A stretch of 64,000 nucleotides of DNA from an uncultured Alphaproteobacteria bacterium (lineage in GTDB: Bacteria; Pseudomonadota; Alphaproteobacteria; RF32; CAG-239). This document shows, piece by piece, positions 3,451 to 49,598 of this stretch; positions within the stretch are counted from its first letter, which is position 1; each line of letters starts with the position of its first letter. A model generated the notes under the pieces. That model made no database searches and was not told the DNA's origin. It was given only the letters and a program-made list of their open reading frames with translations. Location: the NCBI GenBank assembly GCA_944391475.1, contig CALXTR010000003.1, forward strand, positions 50,823 to 114,822, read 5' to 3'. The translations under genes and the position numbers were made by a program.

Positions 3451-3626
3451 TAGTGCTGATTAATCTATTCGTCTGAAAATAAACTTCCACTAGCTAACGC
3501 AAGTGGTATTACCTGTTCCGAACTACGTTCGCCCTGCCCAAAGGCTTCGCAAGCCTAACGGCTGGGCAGGTATGTCTACATCTACCTGCTTACGCAGGTA
3601 GTGTTACGTTCGAATCATAAATCCTT

Positions 3627-3684
3627 AACTCAACATAAAAAAAGAGGCCGACAAGCGACCTCATTTTTTATGGCGTACCCGGAG
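3627..3684. repeat. Partial direct copy of the tRNA-Arg 3' end plus its terminator (attR-like scar)
   Basis: ctcaacataaaaaaagaggccgacaagcgacctcattttttatggcgtacccggaggg is 57 of 58 identical to 3873-3930. Confidence 0.8.
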
Positions 3685-3872
3685 GGCTTGAGGATAAAAA
3701 CAACCGTTACTCCGGTTGTTTTTACCGCAAAAGGCGCAGTTTTCTTAACAAGCAAGGAATGCGTAAGCTTTCCGAAGCGAGATTAGGAAACAAGTGACCG
3801 CAGCGAGTTAGCGAACTTGTGAGCTTAGGAGCCAGAACGAACCCACGAGTGGGTTCAAATCCGCCGGGACTC

Positions 3873-3930
3873 AACATAAAAAAAGAGGTCGACAAGCGAC
3901 CTCATTTTTTATGGCGTACCCGGAGGGATT
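3873..3930. repeat. Direct repeat copy 2. It overlaps the genuine tRNA-Arg 3' end and its terminator.
   Basis: Same 58-mer as 3627-3684. Its 16 nt of tRNA 3' end continue into the full tRNA at 3912-3988. Confidence 0.8.
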
Positions 3931-3988
3931 CGAACCCACGACCCTTGGCGTCGGAGGCCAATACTCTATCCAACTGAGCTACGGGTAC
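3912..3988 (-). tRNA. tRNA-Arg (anticodon CCG)
   Basis: Reverse complement reads GTACCCGTAGCTCAGTTGGATAGAGTATTGGCCTCCGACGCCAAGGGTCGTGGGTTCGAATCCCTCCGGGTACGCCA. It has a 7-bp acceptor stem, a GTTCGAATC T-loop and the anticodon loop CUCCGAC. A hairpin plus T-run terminator follows. Confidence 0.85.
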
Positions 3989-9784: not shown

Positions 9785-11473
9785 ATGAAAGACGAAACCC
9801 GGGGTCTGTATTTGGCCATTATTCTTTCCATGGTAGTAATTTTCATCACCAACTGGATGTTTCCGACTACCGAACCCCAGATACAAAACGATGTAGAAGT
9901 TCCTCAAACCGCATTAAATATGCCGGAAAATGAAACCACAAAACCTGAAAACGAGGTTAAAGAAGACAAGGTCGTACTAAGCACCGCTCAAGCTGTTGCC
10001 CAAGACCGCCGTATTAACATTGTCAATCAGGACATTCGCGGTTCTCTTCGCTTAAAAGGTGCCCGTTTTGATGAATTGTATCTCCGCAAATATCGCACCG
10101 AGATTGACCCGCAAAGCCCAGCGGTTGAATTGTTATCTCCTTCCCAAACCGCTAACCCCTACTATGCTGAGTTTGGCTGGTTGTCCTCAGATAAAAGCAT
10201 CAAATTGCCGGACAACAACACCGTCTGGACTGCCAAAAGCCGCGAATTAACCCCGCAAACCCCCTTGGTACTGGAATGGAACAACGGCCAGGGACTACGT
10301 TTTATTCGTAAGATTTCGGTTGATGAAAACTATATGTTCACCATCGACCAAAATGTTGAGAACAATAGTGGTAAAACTGTTGCTCTTTTCCCATACGGAT
10401 TAATCAACCGCCACTATGAAAAATCTGCCGAGAACAGCAGTGTTGTACACGAAGGCATGATAGGCGTTCTCGATTCGTCATTAAAAGAAGTCAAATATAC
10501 CAAGTTAAAAGAAATCGGTGAGAAAGAAAGCTTTGAAACCAACGGCGGCTGGGCCGGTTTTGGTGATCGCTATTGGTTTACTTCTTTCATTCTTAACAAT
10601 ACTGACAACGGCAAAGTCAAATTCAGCCGCACTGGCGACAACAATTATCAGGTTGACTACGTCGGACAAGCTGTTGAAATCGTTCCCGGTTCAGTTGGTA
10701 GCAACAGCATCAAATTTTATGCCGGAGCTAAAGAAATTAAACTTTTGGATTACTACACCGACAAACTCAACATTAAGAAATTTGACCTCGCTGTTGATTT
10801 TGGTTGGTATTATTTCTTGACCAAACCGTTCTTTTATATTTTAGATTTCCTATATCACTTTATCGGCAACATGGGCTGGGCCATTTTACTATTTGCCGCC
10901 TTGTTGCGTTTGGTAATGTTCCCAATTGCCAACAAATCTTATGAGAGCATGTCTAAGATGAAAAAAGTGCAGCCAAAATTAAAAGAGCTGCAAGAAAGAT
11001 ATAAAGACGATAAAGTAAAACTCCAAAAAGAGATTATGGAAACCTACCGCAAAGAAAAAATCAATCCGGCTGCCGGTTGCCTTCCGGTTTTAATCCAGAT
11101 TCCGATTTTCTTCTCTTTGTATAAGGTGCTAAACATTGCCATTGAGATTCGTCACGCTCCCTTTGTTGGTTGGATTCAAGACCTTTCAGCCCCTGACCCG
11201 CTGACAATATCCGTTTTAACCAGCTTGCCGATTCCAGGCTTGCTAGATATTGGCGTTTGGCCTATTTTGATGGGTATCAGCATGTACATTCAACAAAAAC
11301 TCAATCCGGCTCCGGCCAATAAAGATCAAGCTCGAGTCTTTGCCATGATGCCGCTGATTTTCACCTTCATGCTCGGACATTTTGCATCCGGTTTAGTCAT
11401 TTACTGGACCTTGAGCAATATCTTGTCCATTATTCAGCAAAAAGCCATCATGCATAAATTGGGAGTAAAATAA
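9785..11473 (+). CDS. yidC: Membrane protein insertase YidC
   Basis: Large periplasmic domain followed by the conserved 5-TM core ([33 protein letters not shown]...). Confidence 0.95.
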
Positions 11474-23028: not shown

Positions 23029-23063
23029 TCAGCAATGCATAAATAAGATATGTAGATTTTAAA

Positions 23064-23357
23064 TTCTCCGTAAAATTGCTCTAGACGACCATTATACGAG
23101 CTTTAAGTAAAAGGTCGGATAGTGAGGAGAATAATAAGAAACCAGAAAAAATACGACTGAGTGTATAAAGACATACACGATTGGAGTATTTTTTCTGGCT
23201 TCTGTATTAGTCACCCGCTAGACGAGCTTAAAGTAAAAGTTCGGAGTTTTAGGTTAGTAGAGTAGTTTTTAGGGCGAGAAAAGCTTGAGCGTATATAGAA
23301 ATACGTGAGCTTTTCGAGACCCGCTAAAACTGCTCTAATAACCCAAAATACGAACTT
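23064..23357. repeat. Block of modular about 125 bp palindromic repeat units (standalone copy), directly abutting the lptG-like stop codon
   Basis: Shares ttctccgtaaaattgctctagacgaccattatacga, ctagacgagcttta, tattagtcacccgctagacgagc and the gagYgtatawagaaatacRYg hairpins with 30478-30748 and 44730-45016. Confidence 0.8.
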
Positions 23358-28720: not shown

Positions 28721-29491
28721 ATGCTAAAAAATGCCGAAAATATCTTAATCACCGGAGCAAGCAGCGGAATTGGCCGAGCTCTGGCAATATACTATGCTCA
28801 AAACGGAGCTAAGAATTTGTTTATCTGCGGCCGAAATTTTGAAAGACTTTCCGCTGTTCAAAACGAATGTACCAAATATGGTGCGACGGTTTATCCGTGC
28901 ATTTTAGATGTTACCGATAGACAAGCTGTTAAAGAATGGATATTTAACTGCGAGCAGGTTGCACCGCTAAACTTAGTCATTGCCAATGCCGGTGTAGCCA
29001 CTCTGCAAGAAACCCCGGAGCACATCTACAACACTTTTGAGACCAACATTTTTGGGGTTGTCAATACGGTATTACCGAGCATTGAAGTATATCGAAAAAG
29101 AGATAATAAGGCAGATAAGCGCAAAGCCATTGCCATCATCAGTTCGATAGCGGGTTATCATGGTATGCCGAGTTGTCCTTCTTATAGTGCCTCTAAAGCC
29201 TGCGTTAAAGCTTGGGGCGAAGGCTTAAGAGGAGATTTGAAAGGAGATAAAATTAAAGTTAGTGTGGTGTGCCCCGGCTTTGTCCGTTCAGGGATTACGG
29301 ATAAAAATACTTGCCCCATGCCATTTTTCTTAGAAAGTGAGAAGGCCGCTGCAATCATTGCTCAGCGCATAGATAAGAATATCGGGTTGATAGCATTCCC
29401 CTGGCCTACCCGATTTTTTGCATGGTTTGGTTCCATTTTACCCAACCGAATTAGCCAGTTTATATACGACCGCCTTCCGCATAAAGTTTAG
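28721..29491 (+). CDS. Short-chain dehydrogenase/reductase (SDR)
   Basis: TGASSGIGRA cofactor motif, NAG, and the catalytic YxxxK (YSASK). Confidence 0.85.
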   Translation: MLKNAENILITGASSGIGRALAIYYAQNGAKNLFICGRNFERLSAVQNECTKYGATVYPCILDVTDRQAVKEWIFNCEQVAPLNLVIANAGVATLQETPEHIYNTFETNIFGVVNTVLPSIEVYRKRDNKADKRKAIAIISSIAGYHGMPSCPSYSASKACVKAWGEGLRGDLKGDKIKVSVVCPGFVRSGITDKNTCPMPFFLESEKAAAIIAQRIDKNIGLIAFPWPTRFFAWFGSILPNRISQFIYDRLPHKV

Positions 29492-29517
29492 ATAATAAGG
29501 CCTTAATTAAAACTCCG

Positions 29518-29546
29518 CTTGGTGCGGAGTTTTTTTGTGCCCGAAA
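29518..29546 (+). terminator. Rho-independent terminator after the SDR gene
   Basis: aaaactccgcttggtgcggagttttttt. Confidence 0.75.
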
Positions 29547-29576
29547 AATCCGCTTGCAAATTTTACGAGATAGGAT

Positions 29577-30050
29577 AAGCTAAAACTGCACTCGGGAGAG
29601 CCGAGTGCGGAGTGTAGTAACTCCTTGGTCAGAAAAGAACAACTCCTTTAATGGGGAGCTGGGGAAATAAGGCTATGCACGAATAACCCAGACTGTTTCT
29701 GTGTACAGTTTGGCCCCTAAATCCCCCTTAAAAATATATTTTAGTTTAGCTAGAAAAAGATAGATGCGAGCAAAATGGTGTAGCGGATAGTTCTTCATAT
29801 CCGCAAAGCATTTTACGAAGCAGATGCTTTTTATAGCTAAATCCGCAGGACAAGCCTCCAATCATCATCCTACTTGCCATTTTTCTTGGTGTTAGCAATA
29901 AGTAGCACCTGCGAAAAATGCCTGCGTATTATAATGATTGGGCGGCTTGCTAAAATATGTCTTTAAGGGAGATTTAGGGGCATCCTCCCCACCTTGATTT
30001 GTTGTCAAGGTGGTTTCTTTTTAACCGGAAACCTAAAGGGAGTTTAGAAC
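29577..30050 (+). promoter_or_regulatory. Structured leader of XRE module copy 1: conserved 5' hairpins and a terminator-like hairpin plus T-run immediately upstream of the RBS. It carries a nested MITE-like insert.
   Basis: Conserved gcactcgggagagccgagtgcggagt hairpin, ctcctttaatggggagc, and ccaccttgatttgttgtcaaggtgg followed by tttcttttt, 20 nt before the RBS. Homologous to 44170-44368. Confidence 0.45.
29714..29980. mobile_element. MITE-like 267-bp insertion with 19-bp terminal inverted repeats inside the leader; absent from the paralogous module
   Basis: Terminal inverted repeats cccctaaatcccccttaaa at 29714 and tttaagggagatttagggg at 29962 (18 of 19). Internal hairpins. No ORF. Confidence 0.45.
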
Positions 30051-30299
30051 ATGGGTCATCATCGTAACCGTATTAAATCTTGGCGAGAATGCCGCCAAGA
30101 AATTGGCGAAAAAATTAAGGAAATGCGATTAGAGTTGGATTTACCACCCGAAACCGCCGCCGAAATTTTGCGTATCGGCACCAATCATTTGCTTTGTTTA
30201 GAAAATGGCGATATCCGCAAAATGGAAATTTCTTATCTCCATTCTATAGCTTATAAATATCACTATAAGTTAAAAATCAGTTTTGAGAAAAAAACATAA
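30051..30299 (+). CDS. XRE-family helix-turn-helix protein (82 aa), paralog 1
   Basis: HTH LDLPPETAAEILRIGTNHLLCLENG. RBS AAAGGGAG. Roughly 70% identical to the 44369-44614 product. Confidence 0.7.
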   Translation: MGHHRNRIKSWRECRQEIGEKIKEMRLELDLPPETAAEILRIGTNHLLCLENGDIRKMEISYLHSIAYKYHYKLKISFEKKT

Positions 30300-30477
30300 C
30301 GTAAGCAAAAAGAGTTATTCCTCAATTGCTTTAGCAATATTTAAAGTCATCCCTCGTTTTTCGGAGAAAAACGTCCAGGGATCTTCGAATTTGTAAATAA
30401 AAAAACAACCTTCCGATTATTAAAAACTAACTCGAAGACCCCTTAACGACTACTAACGTAGTCGAGGGGTGACATTA
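30300..30477 (+). repeat. Conserved hairpin pair downstream of the XRE gene (copy 1)
   Basis: tcatccctcgtttttcggagaaaaacgtccagggatcttc and ccccttaacgactactaacgtagtcgaggggtgac are nearly identical to 44615-44729. Confidence 0.6.
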
Positions 30478-30748
30478 TCTAGACGAGCTTTAAGTAAAAG
30501 GTCGGATAGTGAGGGGAATAATAAGATTTCAGAGTGGCGGCGACTGAGTGTATAAAGAAATACACGGGTTCGAGCCGCCAGCTCGCAAAATCTGTATTAG
30601 TCACCCGCTAGACGAGCTTTAAAGTTCGGAGAATGAGTCGTATAGAGTAATTTCTAGGAGCGAAACAAACCCTAGCGTAGATAGACCTACGTGGGTTTGT
30701 TGAGTTCTCCGTAAAATTGCTCTATACGACCATTATACGAACTTTAAG
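30478..30748. repeat. Block of about 125 bp palindromic repeat units (module 1 tail), abutting the ftsH stop codon
   Basis: Units begin with ctagacgagcttta and contain the hairpins gtgtataaagaaatacac and cgtagatagacctacg. Ends with ccattatacgaactttaag. Confidence 0.8.
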
Positions 30749-32614
30749 TTAGAGTTCGGGGACAGAAGAATGCGTCCTCCTCTCTTCAGCTACCGGAACA
30801 TCTTCGCTGCGCTCCAACTTCTCGCCTTTGACCACTTGCTTGATTTCATCACCGGTCAGGGTTTCATATTCAATCAAGGCTTCGGCCAAAAGTTCCCATT
30901 CTTTGCGTTTGTCTTGCAAAATTTGCTTGGCTTCATTATAACCCGACATCACCAAGGACTTGATTTCGGCATCAACCAAACGGGCCGTATCTTCACTCAT
31001 ATTTTTGTTTTGAGTAACCGACTTGCCTAAAAATACTTCGCCCGAATTTTCGGCATACAACACCGGACCAAGCAAATCGCTCATTCCCCATTCGGTCACC
31101 ATAGAGCGCGCCAAGTTGGTTGCCGCCGCAATATCCGAAGAAGCCCCGCTGGTCACATCATCTGCCCCAAACTTGATTTCTTCTGCCACGCGTCCACCCA
31201 TCATAATTGCCAAGCGCGATTTCATTTTCTGCTTAGAATAAGAATATTGGTCTTTTTCGGGCAGTTGTTGCACCATACCCAAAGCCCGTCCCCGCGGGAT
31301 AATCGTTGCTTTGTGAATGGGGTCGGTTTCTTTAACATATAGCGAGCAAATCGCATGTCCGGCCTCGTGATAAGCGGTGAGTTGCTTTTCTTTCTCGTCC
31401 ATCGCCATTGACTTGCGCTCTGAGCCCATCATCACTTTATCTTTAGCTTCATCAAAGTCCTTAGAAGTAACTTTGTGCTTGTTTTTGCGCGCTGCTAATA
31501 AGGCGGCCTCGTTCACCAAGTTGGCCAAATCTGCCCCCGAAAACCCCGGAGTACCCCGAGCAATTACCGACAAATTAACATCTTTGGCTAGCGGCACTTT
31601 TTTGACATGAACTTTCAAGATTTCTTCTCGACCTTTTTTGTCCGGATTAGAAACCACCACCTGACGGTCAAAACGCCCCGGACGCAACAAAGCCGGATCC
31701 AAAACATCGGGACGGTTGGTTGCCGCAATCAAAATCACATTTTCATTGTCTTCAAAACCATCCATCTCCACCAACAATTGGTTTAAGGTCTGTTCGCGTT
31801 CATCATTACCACCGCCGAGTCCGGCTCCACGATGACGTCCCACCGCATCAATTTCATCAATAAACAACAGGCAAGGAGCATTTTTCTTGGCTTGAGCAAA
31901 CATATCCCGCACTCGCGAGGCACCCACACCCACAAACATCTCCACAAAATCTGAACCCGAAATTGAAAAGAACGGTACATTAGCCTCACCGGCTACTGCT
32001 TTGGCAATTAGGGTTTTACCGGTTCCCGGAGGTCCGACCAGCAACACGCCTTTAGGGATTTTGCCGCCCAAACGCTGAAATTTTGATGGTTCTTTCAAAA
32101 AGTCGATTACCTCTTCAAGCTCTTGTTTGGCCTCATCGGCTCCGGCCACATCTGCAAAAGTAACTTTTTTAGTATTTTCAATCAACCGCGCGCGTGATTT
32201 TCCAAAACTCATGGCTTTGTTGTTGCCTGAGCTTGCCTGACGCATAAAGAAAATCCACACCCCGATTAGCAAAATCATCGGGAACCAAGAAATCAGCACT
32301 CCCCAAAACGTATTAGCCGAAGTGTCTTCCGGACGAGCCTCCACTTTTGCTCCGCTGGAACGCAAGGTTTCAATCATGGTCGGGTCATATGGGGCATAAG
32401 TACTAAACTTGGTACCATCGGTTGCCGTACCCATAATATTTGCCCCCTCAATCATCACCTCGCTGATTTGCTTATTTTCGGCTTTACTCATAAAGTCCGA
32501 AAAAGCAATTGTCTGATAACCACGACTTTGCGGATTATTGCTAAACATATTCATAATTGCAGAAAGCAGCACGATTGCCACCAGCCAAATAATGATACTT
32601 TTTCCTGATTTCAT
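30749..32614 (-). CDS. ftsH: ATP-dependent zinc metalloprotease FtsH
   Basis: Two N-terminal TM segments, AAA+ Walker [12 protein letters not shown], and the HEAGHA zinc motif. Confidence 0.95.
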
Positions 32615-44169: not shown

Positions 44170-44368
44170 ATGCACTCGGGAGAGCCGGGTGCGGAGTATC
44201 GAAACTCCTCGTATGAAAAAAATAGCTCCTTGAATGGGGAGCGACCGGAATAAGTGTGCCTTGCGCATAACGAAGAAGGTCGACTGACATACGCAGTTTC
44301 GAACTCCCCGCCTTAGGAAAGCTAGGGCGGTTTCTTTTTAACCGGAAACCTAAAGGGAGTTTAGAACC
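44170..44368 (+). promoter_or_regulatory. Structured leader of XRE module copy 2 (no MITE insert), with a terminator/attenuator hairpin directly upstream of the RBS
   Basis: Hairpin gcactcgggagagccgggtgcggagt, ctccttgaatggggagc, and gccttaggaaagctagggc followed by ggtttcttttt, then the identical RBS region aaccggaaacctaaagggagtttagaac. Confidence 0.45.
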
Positions 44369-44614
44369 ATGAGTCACAATTACCGCCGTCAAGCTTGGCA
44401 AGCCTGTCAGCAAGAGATTGGCGAACAAATTAAGAATATGCGCTTAGAGTTGGATTTACCTCCACAAATTGCCGCAGAACTTTTACATATCGGATTAAAC
44501 CAGCTTTTGTACCTTGAAAACGGCTATATTGGGAAAATGCAAATTACCGTTCTCCATGCACTGGCTTATAAATATCACTATAAGTTAAAGATAAGCTTTG
44601 AGAAAAAGAATTAG
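44369..44614 (+). CDS. XRE-family helix-turn-helix protein (81 aa), paralog 2
   Basis: LDLPPQIAAELLHIGLNQLLYLENG, with the C-terminus AYKYHYKLKISFEKK identical to paralog 1. Confidence 0.7.
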   Translation: MSHNYRRQAWQACQQEIGEQIKNMRLELDLPPQIAAELLHIGLNQLLYLENGYIGKMQITVLHALAYKYHYKLKISFEKKN

Positions 44615-44729: not shown

Positions 44730-45016
44730 TACTTATGTATTAGTCACCCACTAGACGAGCTTTCATCTCCGGCACGGCTTAAAGTTCGGAGAATGAGTCG
44801 TATAGAGTGATTTCTTTGGCGATGACAATCCTAGCGTATATAGAAATACGTGGATTGGCTAAACAAGTTTCAACCTCTGGCACGGCTTAAAGTTCGGAGA
44901 ATGAGTCGTATAGAGTAATTTCTAGGAGCGAAACAAACCCTAGCGTAGATAGACCTACGTGGGTTTGTTGAGTTCTCCGTAAAATTGCTCTAGACGACCA
45001 TTATACGAACTTTAAA
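44730..45016. repeat. Block of about 125 bp palindromic repeat units (module 2 tail), abutting the fabG stop codon
   Basis: tattagtcacccactagacgagc, two copies of ggcacggcttaaagttcggagaatgagtcgtatagag, and the hairpins cgtatatagaaatacg and cgtagatagacctacg. Ends with ccattatacgaactttaaa. Confidence 0.8.
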
Positions 45017-45754
45017 TTAAATCATGGCCATACCACCATTAATATTAATAGTCTGTCCGGTGATATATTGAGCTTCATCAGATGCCAAGAAAGCAACCAC
45101 ATTGGCAATGTCTTGAGCTTCACCCAGCTTGCCTTCCGGAATTTTGGCCAACAAAGCAGCTTTCACATCTTCAGGCAAAACATCGGTCATCGGAGTACGA
45201 ATGAAACCAGGAGCAATCGAGTTAACCGTAATTCCGCGAGAACCAACTTCTTGAGCCAAACATTTGTTCATGGCAATCATACCGGCTTTTGAAGCAGAAT
45301 AGTTAGCTTGTCCGGCATTTCCGGTAACACCAACCACCGAAGCAATACCGATAATACGACCATAGTGACGTTTCATCATACCGCGAACGGCAGCTTTAGC
45401 CAATTTGAAACCAGCCGAAAGGTTAACATCGAGAACCAACTGCCAGTCTTCATCGCTCATACGAATAAACAAGTTATCGCGGGTCAAACCGGCATTGTTA
45501 ACCAAGATATCAATGCGGCCGAGTTTGTCTTCCACATTTTTAACCAAGTTTTTAACATCATCAGGGTTGGTCAAGTTAGCTACAAAGATTTCGACATTAT
45601 CACCGAGCTCAGCTTTGAGTTTTTCCATCGGCTCAGCGCGCATATCAGTCAAAGCCAAAATTGCACCTTGAGCATGCAAGGTACGAGCAATTTTATCACC
45701 CAAACCGCCGGCTGCACCGGTAATCAAAGCTACTTTTCCATCAAGTCTAAACAT
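45017..45754 (-). CDS. fabG: 3-oxoacyl-ACP reductase
   Basis: TGAAGGLG, NAG, and YSASKAG; 245 aa. Confidence 0.93.
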   Translation of the reverse strand: MFRLDGKVALITGAAGGLGDKIARTLHAQGAILALTDMRAEPMEKLKAELGDNVEIFVANLTNPDDVKNLVKNVEDKLGRIDILVNNAGLTRDNLFIRMSDEDWQLVLDVNLSAGFKLAKAAVRGMMKRHYGRIIGIASVVGVTGNAGQANYSASKAGMIAMNKCLAQEVGSRGITVNSIAPGFIRTPMTDVLPEDVKAALLAKIPEGKLGEAQDIANVVAFLASDEAQYITGQTININGGMAMI

Positions 45755-49595: not shown

Positions 49596-49598
49596 TTC

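Follow-up and report, generated by a model that had tools for sequence, protein, structure and literature searches.

The stretch of DNA considered here (the window) comprises 64,000 nucleotides of an uncultured alphaproteobacterium (GTDB lineage RF32; CAG-239; assembly GCA_944391475.1, contig CALXTR010000003.1), and the subject of this work is a 269-bp segment within it (29713-29981), which lies in the 5' leader of a gene for an 82-aa helix-turn-helix (HTH) protein. This segment is a real, lineage-specific foldback insertion, similar in kind to the miniature inverted-repeat transposable elements, or MITEs. On balance, we favour the explanation that it is a non-autonomous foldback insertion, which shares its terminal module with a palindromic repeat of cyanobacteria, was inserted with no duplication of the target, and is tolerated by folding out of the way of the leader. 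It looks like a tolerated passenger at a single sampled locus, rather than a proven multi-copy jumping element. The lineage sequence that was sampled consists of the 64-kb window and ~390 kb (partly redundant) of related loci, designated L121-L165.

Extent of the element and polarity of the change

In an earlier note on this DNA, the element was described as 267 bp long with terminal inverted repeats of 19 bp (18/19 matching). The two 19-mers do lie where that note had placed them, viz. the left at 29714-29732 (+ strand, 0 mismatches) and the right at 29962-29980 (- strand, 1 mismatch), and the number of such matches expected by chance, as determined from dinucleotide-preserving shuffles of the window, is 0.00. 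However, the terminal inverted repeat in fact extends over 32 nt, with 29/32 positions complementary (91%) and the two arms 205 nt apart, and as a result the length of the insert is 269 bp. The different parts of the element are as follows.

29713..29981, no strand: inserted foldback element, with 32-nt inverted repeats at both ends (GC 39.8% vs 42.4% for the window)
29713..29744, + strand: left terminal inverted repeat, GCCCCTAAATCCCCCTTAAAAATATATTTTAG, whose bases 2-22 are the terminus of a cyanobacterial palindromic repeat
29950..29981, - strand: right terminal inverted repeat, reverse complement GCCCCTAAATCTCCCTTAAAGACATATTTTAG, with 3 mismatches vs the left arm
29745..29841, no strand: internal hairpin arm A, closed by a 15-nt inverted repeat (29745-29759 / 29827-29841, 93%)
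29851..29949, no strand: internal hairpin arm B, which is not the reverse complement of arm A

The earlier characterization of the interior as rich in hairpins and devoid of any open reading frame (ORF) is in essence correct. When the insert is folded as DNA, the energy is -60.8 kcal/mol (z -8.66 vs shuffles), and when folded as RNA the z values are -10.1 for the + strand and -11.5 for the - strand. The predicted fold is a closed three-way junction made up of a 32-bp terminal stem, arm A, a 9-nt mini-hairpin and arm B. A degenerate palindrome spanning the full length was ruled out, as the self-reverse-complement score of the interior (-16) is that of shuffled sequences (-15.5 +/- 8.9). The longest ORFs touching the insert are of 62 aa (TTG start, running past the end of the insert) and 50 aa (also TTG), and the concatenated ORF parts encoded by the insert gave no protein match, in what is a weak test, since a 31-aa gene called in L121 was not recovered by it either. 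A search of the whole window against Rfam 15 at the gathering score yielded only a tRNA (3915-3988) and left the insert unmatched; at E values up to 10, the region 29400-30900 gave only microRNA (miRNA) and small nucleolar RNA noise from the long hairpins. Further, there are no tRNA or tmRNA genes and no tandem repeats around the insertion site, and no promoter-like site was found within the insert.

If the 269 bp are removed, then the leader of the HTH gene (copy 1) aligns collinearly with that of a paralog in the window (copy 2, 44172-44368), and the insert is thus exactly the material missing from copy 2, as had been noted before. The question whether copy 2 had instead suffered a deletion, which the earlier note had left to an outgroup, is answered by the ortholog of this SDR-HTH-ftsH locus in a sister genome (L143, ENA scaffold_373; L144, GCA_949288025.1). 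Identity of the ortholog to the window is 97.6% over 9.9 kb on one side and 97.8% over 9.7 kb on the other, and it shares the terminator hairpin of the window, but the 269 bp are missing from it. The leader in L145 (193 nt) is also empty. In total, 17 distinct leaders from six genomic contexts are empty, 16 of them 190-200 nt in length and one (that in L143) 229 nt on account of a 36-nt tandem duplication, and a leader of 463 nt is found only in copy 1 of the window and in its near-identical metagenomic counterparts. The element is therefore polymorphic, being absent in L143, L144 and L145 and present in the window and in L121-L127, and the polarity of the change is settled: the 269 bp are a derived insertion. 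If the segment had been ancestral and was deleted from copy 2 and the other leaders, then identical and precise deletions would be needed in at least 17 leaders in six contexts, inclusive of the ortholog at 97.6% identity. Beyond the bare comparison of the two copies nothing speaks for such an origin, and we regard it as refuted.

The same HTH protein is encoded by seven contigs from two projects (BRZ_* and ONAT22-1_*), in which the insert is complete (L121-L125) or represented by its 3' part only (L126 and L127), with 0 differences throughout. Among these carriers, the HTH gene, the DNA downstream of it and the 3' part of the leader are just as invariant as the insert itself, while the 5' part of the leader differs at 5-13 of 82-126 positions. 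As the 3' flank is equally invariant, the lack of differences in the insert is attributable to a recent common origin of this 3' block rather than to detectable selection. These observations also bear upon the possibility that the insert is a selected RNA domain, i.e. an enlargement of the leader RNA or a small RNA embedded in it, which alters the regulation of the HTH gene and is kept as useful. The 0/269 differences beside a variable 5' leader, the very stable and modular fold, and the intact architecture of the leader speak for such a domain. However, besides the recent common origin indicated by the equally invariant surroundings, both strands fold equally well, as expected of palindromy at the DNA level, there are no homologs in which covariation could be seen, no Rfam match and no internal promoter-like site, and 17 distinct leaders function without the insert. 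We consider a selected domain of this kind to be quite improbable.

Some of the carriers differ from the window further upstream. In L122 (1-1235) and L123 (1-227), which are from two projects, other DNA is found upstream of the position equivalent to 29545 of the window. The upstream gene of these loci was examined as a possible transposase and this was ruled out, as the gene is glycosyl-transferase-family-3-like. In L124 (1-121) a different promoter region is joined to the insert-bearing leader and the identical HTH gene. The differing upstream DNA is the result either of repeat-mediated rearrangement at the leader or of assembly joins across a repeated leader; in both cases the repeated 5' leader is a breakpoint, of recombination or of assembly. 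A rearrangement is also seen in the sister genome, where 36 nt of L143 (~9850-9925, corresponding to ~29665-29705 of the window) are duplicated in tandem, GCTATGCACGAATAACCCAGACTGTTCTAGTTACAG, the duplication ending a few bases to the 5' side of where the window has the insert. L145, which has the same HTH allele as L143, is without this duplication. The linker region in which the insert resides is a hot spot for rearrangement.

A leader which is a hot spot for recombination and duplication, as indicated by the 36-nt duplication in L143 and by the mosaic leaders of the paralogs, could be imagined to have made the palindrome locally, by template switching or by inverted duplication at a stalled fork in hairpin-rich sequence. 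However, the 269 bp have no match, in whole or in part, in the leader, elsewhere in the window or in the related loci, the interior is not an inverted self-duplication (-16 vs -15.5 +/- 8.9, as noted above), and the termini match a foreign repeat family. A local origin is accordingly very improbable.

Termini shared with a cyanobacterial palindromic repeat

A scan of GTDB genomes with the 19-mer identified at least 120 loci, nearly all of which are labelled cyanobacteria. The genera among the matches listed include Nostoc, Anabaena, Microcoleus, Scytonema, Microcystis, Chamaesiphon and others, together with one match labelled Gracilibacteria and two labelled "uncultured bacterium". In all of the matches listed, the 19-mer forms the terminus of a palindromic repeat of 75-90 nt (GATCCCCCTAAATCCCCCTTAAAAAGGGGGAC...CCCCCCTTTTTAAGGGGGGYTAGGGGGGATC), and bases 2-22 of the left arm of the insert (CCCCTAAATCCCCCTTAAAAA) are identical to this terminus, with 127 BLAST matches at 21/21 among those listed. 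The variant in the right arm, with T at position 12, has a 19/19 match to L079. The terminal module, (G/A)ATCCCCCTAAATCCCCCTTAAAAA, is present at both ends of the insert in inverted orientation. By our own, uncomputed estimate, chance is a very unlikely source of an identity over 21/21 positions with the consensus end of a hyper-abundant repeat. The sequences thus suggest that the termini of the insert and the cyanobacterial repeat share a terminal module, be it by descent, by transfer or by convergence on the same binding protein. As the outer 21 nt are massively repeated in cyanobacteria, it is probable that the ends of the insert serve for recognition in a mobile-element family, and its interior would then be a lineage-specific cargo.

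The cyanobacterial repeat resembles the insert in that paired C-run and G-run termini surround a variable core, and larger variants with other cores are seen among the matches listed (~190 nt in L019 and ~130 nt in L043). It differs from the insert in that the latter has an alphaproteobacterial host and an unrelated core of 205 nt, and lacks the internal CCCCCTTAAAAAGGGGG hairpins. Following TTAAAAA, the window has TATATTTTAG and not GGGGG, and the CCCCC-TTAAAAA-GGGGG hairpins as well as the short core are absent. At the right flank, GGGGC-ATC in the window resembles the GGGGG-ATC end of the cyanobacterial repeat, whereas the left end is without GAT; the GATC end is therefore represented only at the right of the insert (as CATC). 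Nothing similar to the interior of the insert was found among the at least 120 cyanobacterial loci, and searches of JGI metagenomes and IMG/VR with the 10 innermost nt of the window's repeat (ATATTTTAG) yielded 0 matches. Further, no insertion sequence (IS) with GCCCCTAAATC... ends was found among the cyanobacterial loci, and the only paired matches (L046 and L112) are separate small elements. No published name was found for the GATC-bounded repeat of cyanobacteria, which may belong with the MITE-like and small dispersed Nostoc repeats of Elhai et al. 2008.

The three matches to this terminus that are not labelled cyanobacteria are L094 (JAAUUT010000028.1, labelled Candidatus Gracilibacteria) and L067 and L119 (both labelled uncultured bacterium). 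The accession series of L094 is close to that of a Richelia metagenome-assembled genome (L015 and L053). These three cases could be due to mis-binning or could be real occurrences outside cyanobacteria.

That the termini agree exactly over 21 nt with a hyper-abundant repeat of cyanobacteria gives a hint of a recognition module at the ends which is common to different phyla. Going further than this, the CCCCTAAATCCCCCTTAAAAA module might define a family of small foldback mobile elements extending beyond cyanobacteria, of which one member, with a new two-hairpin core of 205 nt, crossed phyla into an uncultured alphaproteobacterium and entered a structured mRNA leader there with no duplication of its target. 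This extended proposal is a tentative one, and the chances are rather against it; if it were true, a hairpin-recognising mechanism of insertion, still unknown, would be common to several phyla.

The structured leader and the manner of insertion

The alphaproteobacterial nature of the window is supported by its AddA and AddB proteins, which exceed the cut-offs of the alpha-specific NCBIfam equivalogs by a wide margin, and the other window genes that were checked all have housekeeping roles. The insert lies within a spacer of 559 nt between an SDR oxidoreductase gene (28721-29491) and the 82-aa HTH gene (30051-30299). The HTH family is a narrow one, with 53 database proteins at an identity of at least 65% (from ENA, NCBI and Logan only), and it is present several times per genome. 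In related assemblies its copies occur in six genomic contexts, viz. SDR/ftsH, grpE/fabG, EF-hand/proS, lpxA-like/pheT, topA and atpH/priA. A conserved leader, 190-200 nt in length, goes with each copy; it begins at GCACTCGGG and is preceded by a promoter-like TTGCAA, a 16-nt spacer and TAAGCT/TAAGTT. The corresponding features in the window are listed below.

29554-29559 and 29576-29581: promoter-like TTGCAA and TAAGCT, separated by a 16-nt spacer, preceding the copy-1 leader
29588..29712, + strand: 5' part of the host leader (helices P1 and P2, anti-SD, GGGGAG strand, P4 and P5)
29982..30050, + strand: 3' part of the host leader (CTCCCC strand, terminator-like hairpin 29989-30013 with T-run, and GGTTTC/GAAACC hairpin)
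30035-30042: Shine-Dalgarno (SD) sequence AAAGGGAG, in the 3' part of the copy-1 leader
30051..30299, + strand: 82-aa HTH gene, copy 1, served by this leader; weak match to PF13413 (HTH_25), homologs with PF13413/PF13560/PF13744
44172..44368, + strand: copy-2 leader with the empty site, upstream of the 81-aa paralog (44369-44614)

The consensus structure was derived by RNAalifold from 18 leaders, after removal of the insert where present. It contains the predicted helices P1, P2 and P5, the GGGGAG:CUCCCC helix and the GGUUUC/GAAACC hairpin, as well as a long-range pairing of AACUCCUU with the SD region AAGGGAGUU (anti-SD:SD). In helix P4, four pairs are changed on both sides, among only 2-3 haplotypes, and the terminator-like hairpin also shows compensatory changes; the independent covariation events are few, because the leaders are mosaics of 2-3 alternative modules. 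Based on the modelled structure, the ~195-nt leader looks like an undescribed cis-regulatory RNA, either a switch or an attenuator. It also has an alternative local AACUCC/GGGGAG hairpin, and no Rfam match. The HTH genes of 81-87 aa which this leader precedes are those of window copies 1 and 2 and of L128, L130, L133, L136, L140, L145, L147, L151-L156, L159 and L162.

In the predicted structure, P5 and the CUCCCC strand are joined by an unpaired linker, and it is here that the insert has entered. When the leader and the insert are folded together (469 nt; -188 kcal/mol, z -11.6), every consensus helix is kept and the insert forms an autonomous multiloop domain. The three-way junction would join the two ends of the insert, so that the anti-SD:SD pairing, the GGGGAG:CUCCCC helix and the terminator could all be preserved. 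The promoter-like site upstream and the terminator suggest that the insert is co-transcribed with the leader. The preservation of the leader helices by a self-contained fold would explain that the insert is tolerated, and remains invariant, in the contigs with this HTH allele. However, it will be incorrect to interpret the modelled fold as evidence of function, as it accounts only for the tolerance of a presumably neutral passenger. The insert represents a clean and well-polarised natural case of a long foldback element within a structured 5' leader whose predicted architecture is undisturbed, and it should be useful for studying the tolerance of regulatory RNAs to insertions. Taken alone, a single small insertion of non-coding DNA in one strain lineage belongs to ordinary bacterial genome dynamics.

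The filled site reads ACAGTT-TG[GCCCC...GGGGC]ATC-CTCCCC around the 269 bp, whereas the empty site in the ortholog is ACAGTT-ACTAA-CTCCCC and all other empty leaders have CAGTT-NNN-AAC-(T/G)CCCC. The filled junction differs from every empty site by 4-5 nt. As the length of the linker (5-6 nt) is conserved, the 269 bp were added without a target-site duplication. The TTAAA/TTTAA bases, which had earlier been suggested as such a duplication, lie within the inverted repeat and cannot serve as one. The boundary is uncertain by ~3 nt, because the ATC at the right may belong to the insert; this ATC (29982-29984) adjoins the right arm and extends the likeness to the GATC-bounded consensus of cyanobacteria.

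Several of the results weigh against the explanation favoured here, viz. that of a mobile, non-autonomous foldback element. When filled and empty sites are compared, no target-site duplication and no repeated bases are found beside the insert, and as the otherwise invariant AAC is altered in the filled site, the insertion was not a clean cut-and-paste. In the sampled lineage sequence there is no second copy of the insert, no solo repeat arm (allowing at most 7 mismatches over 32 positions, or at most 3 over the outer 20) and no weak homolog. A pattern of the extended repeat gave 0 matches in JGI metagenomes and IMG/VR, and the 19-mer and an interior 22-mer gave 0 matches in IMG/VR; no match to the 269 bp was obtained by blastn in PLSDB plasmids or INPHARED phages, and no transposase is found among the genes of the 64-kb window. 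The negative result from JGI is uninformative with regard to close relatives, because a control with the leader motif also gave 0 matches, the lineage being absent from JGI. In addition, the 10 kb added to the right of the window (L163) contain no copy of the insert, no parent IS with matching terminal repeats is present in the window or the related loci sampled, and literature searches with the repeat string turned up no publication containing it. Of the MITE label given to the element earlier, the size, the terminal repeats, the non-coding nature and the polymorphism between strains are borne out, but not the target-site duplication, and a MITE in the strict sense, i.e. multi-copy and mobilised by a transposase, is unproven.

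Since there is no target duplication and 4-5 nt are changed at the junction, clean cut-and-paste by a DDE transposase is disfavoured. The element, which would have come from outside the sampled sequence, entered the single-stranded linker between P5 and CTCCCC after the strain lineage split from the sister at 97.6% identity, and it may have done so by integration of a hairpin or single-stranded DNA type, or by an imprecise process.

MITEs of prokaryotes are <500 bp long, with terminal inverted repeats of ~4-30 bp; they are non-coding, have intergenic or AT-rich targets, are co-transcribed into stable hairpins, and are present or absent between strains (PMC10969869). In its size, its repeats, its non-coding nature and its polymorphism, the insert is similar to MITEs such as Correia/NEMIS of Neisseria and ERIC of enterobacteria. 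However, Correia elements duplicate TA at their target, whereas the insert lacks a target duplication, it was found in no other copies, and neither a parent IS nor a transposase is known for it; further, its interior consists of two independent hairpins and is not a simple palindrome. The Rickettsia palindromic elements (RPEs) are alphaproteobacterial hairpin inserts of ~100-300 nt in functional transcripts or genes, where they are tolerated by folding away, and no transposase is known for them. The insert is likewise alphaproteobacterial and hairpin-forming, resides in a functional transcript and has no known transposase. RPEs have been counted among the MITE-like elements (PMC10969869). They differ from the insert in being multi-copy and often in-frame within ORFs, whereas the insert is seen once, and the two would not be expected to be alike in sequence. 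The PATEs derived from IS200/IS605 share with the insert the lack of a target duplication and the abundance of hairpins, but they carry the subterminal hairpins of their parent IS, while the insert has long terminal inverted repeats. An IS200-like parent was ruled out, as a blastn comparison of the 543-bp IS200-like element in L164 with the 269 bp gave only noise (9-17 nt, E at least 0.7).

If the insert were a classical MITE derived from an IS and moved in trans by a DDE transposase, then its target duplication would have decayed or never been visible, and its other copies would lie outside the sampled sequence. The size, the 32-nt repeats, the non-coding nature, the AT-rich intergenic target, the polymorphism and the stable transcript fold all fit published MITEs, whose target duplications wane with age and whose copy number can be down to 1 per genome (PMC10969869). 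However, the insertion is young, with both flanks ~100% identical among the carriers and the element absent at 97.6% identity, and its duplication should therefore be intact, but none exists. There is also no copy in ~450 kb of lineage sequence, no transposase in the window, and no IS with such ends among at least 120 cyanobacterial loci. A classical MITE is thus a rather unlikely explanation. In another scenario, foreign DNA was captured once, after uptake or transfer, was joined to a fragile site of the leader through illegitimate recombination, and is immobile in this genome. The single copy in all of the sampled sequence, the imprecise junction (4-5 nt changed and no duplication), the instability of the same spot in the sister (the 36-nt tandem duplication in L143) and the terminal 21 nt typical of another phylum are consistent with such a capture. 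However, it is unlikely that the ends of a random fragment would coincide exactly with the two arms of a 32-nt inverted repeat, no donor sequence is present in any collection searched, and the related contig L161 is labelled gut metagenome, an unobvious meeting place with filamentous cyanobacteria. We regard a one-off capture as unlikely, although it is, with the classical MITE, one of the two main alternatives to the favoured explanation.

The HTH gene itself shows less similarity than its surroundings, with 88% nucleotide identity between the window (30051-30299) and L143 (10001-10246) vs 97.6-97.8% for both flanks. The grpE-adjacent paralog of the sister genome (P0001) has 93% protein identity to window copy 1. 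These sequence comparisons suggest either gene conversion among HTH paralogs or diversifying selection.

Other mobile and repeated DNA in the lineage

The earlier note had taken the insert as evidence of active or recently active mobile DNA. That small mobile and repeat DNA is active in this lineage is true, but this rests on an IS200-like element that is polymorphic and a 133-nt palindrome that is multi-copy, and not on the insert. The IS200-like element, of 543 bp, encodes a 134-aa transposase (Y1_Tnp, PF01797) and is found in L164 (18442-18984), with the empty site in L163 (19211|19212); it has no target duplication, adjoins a terminator hairpin and is polymorphic between strains. A second Y1_Tnp gene occurs in L130 (5025-5453). 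The window contains, at 3569-3618, a 50-nt copy of one end of the IS200-like element (100% identical), with no transposase nearby.

The 133-nt palindrome is near-perfect and occurs in the window at 30619-30751, at 44887-45019 and at ~23.2 kb (23059-23307), and at 17 places in the sampled lineage sequence. It is a true multi-copy family of the repetitive extragenic palindrome (REP) or MITE-like kind, and it gives spurious matches to plant miRNAs in Rfam on both strands. Shorter hairpin repeats (30345-30391/44627-44673 and 30424-30477/44678-44731) form arrays with this palindrome downstream of the HTH genes and elsewhere.

A 1013-aa ORF (49599-52640, - strand) has no Pfam domain and contains direct repeats of 300 nt (49766-50065 / 50231-50530, 94% identical). 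The more distant relatives L140 and L160 lack, at the syntenic position, the whole 3.1-kb block of which it is a part (49596-52710), and L128 has at least some of this block. Lastly, two direct repeats of 62 nt (3628-3689 and 3869-3930; 97% identical and 241 nt apart), each with a terminator-like hairpin, are found beside the remnant of the IS200-like end, and the second of these overlaps the end of the tRNA gene (3915-3988, - strand). An integration or excision event at the tRNA may have left them as a scar.

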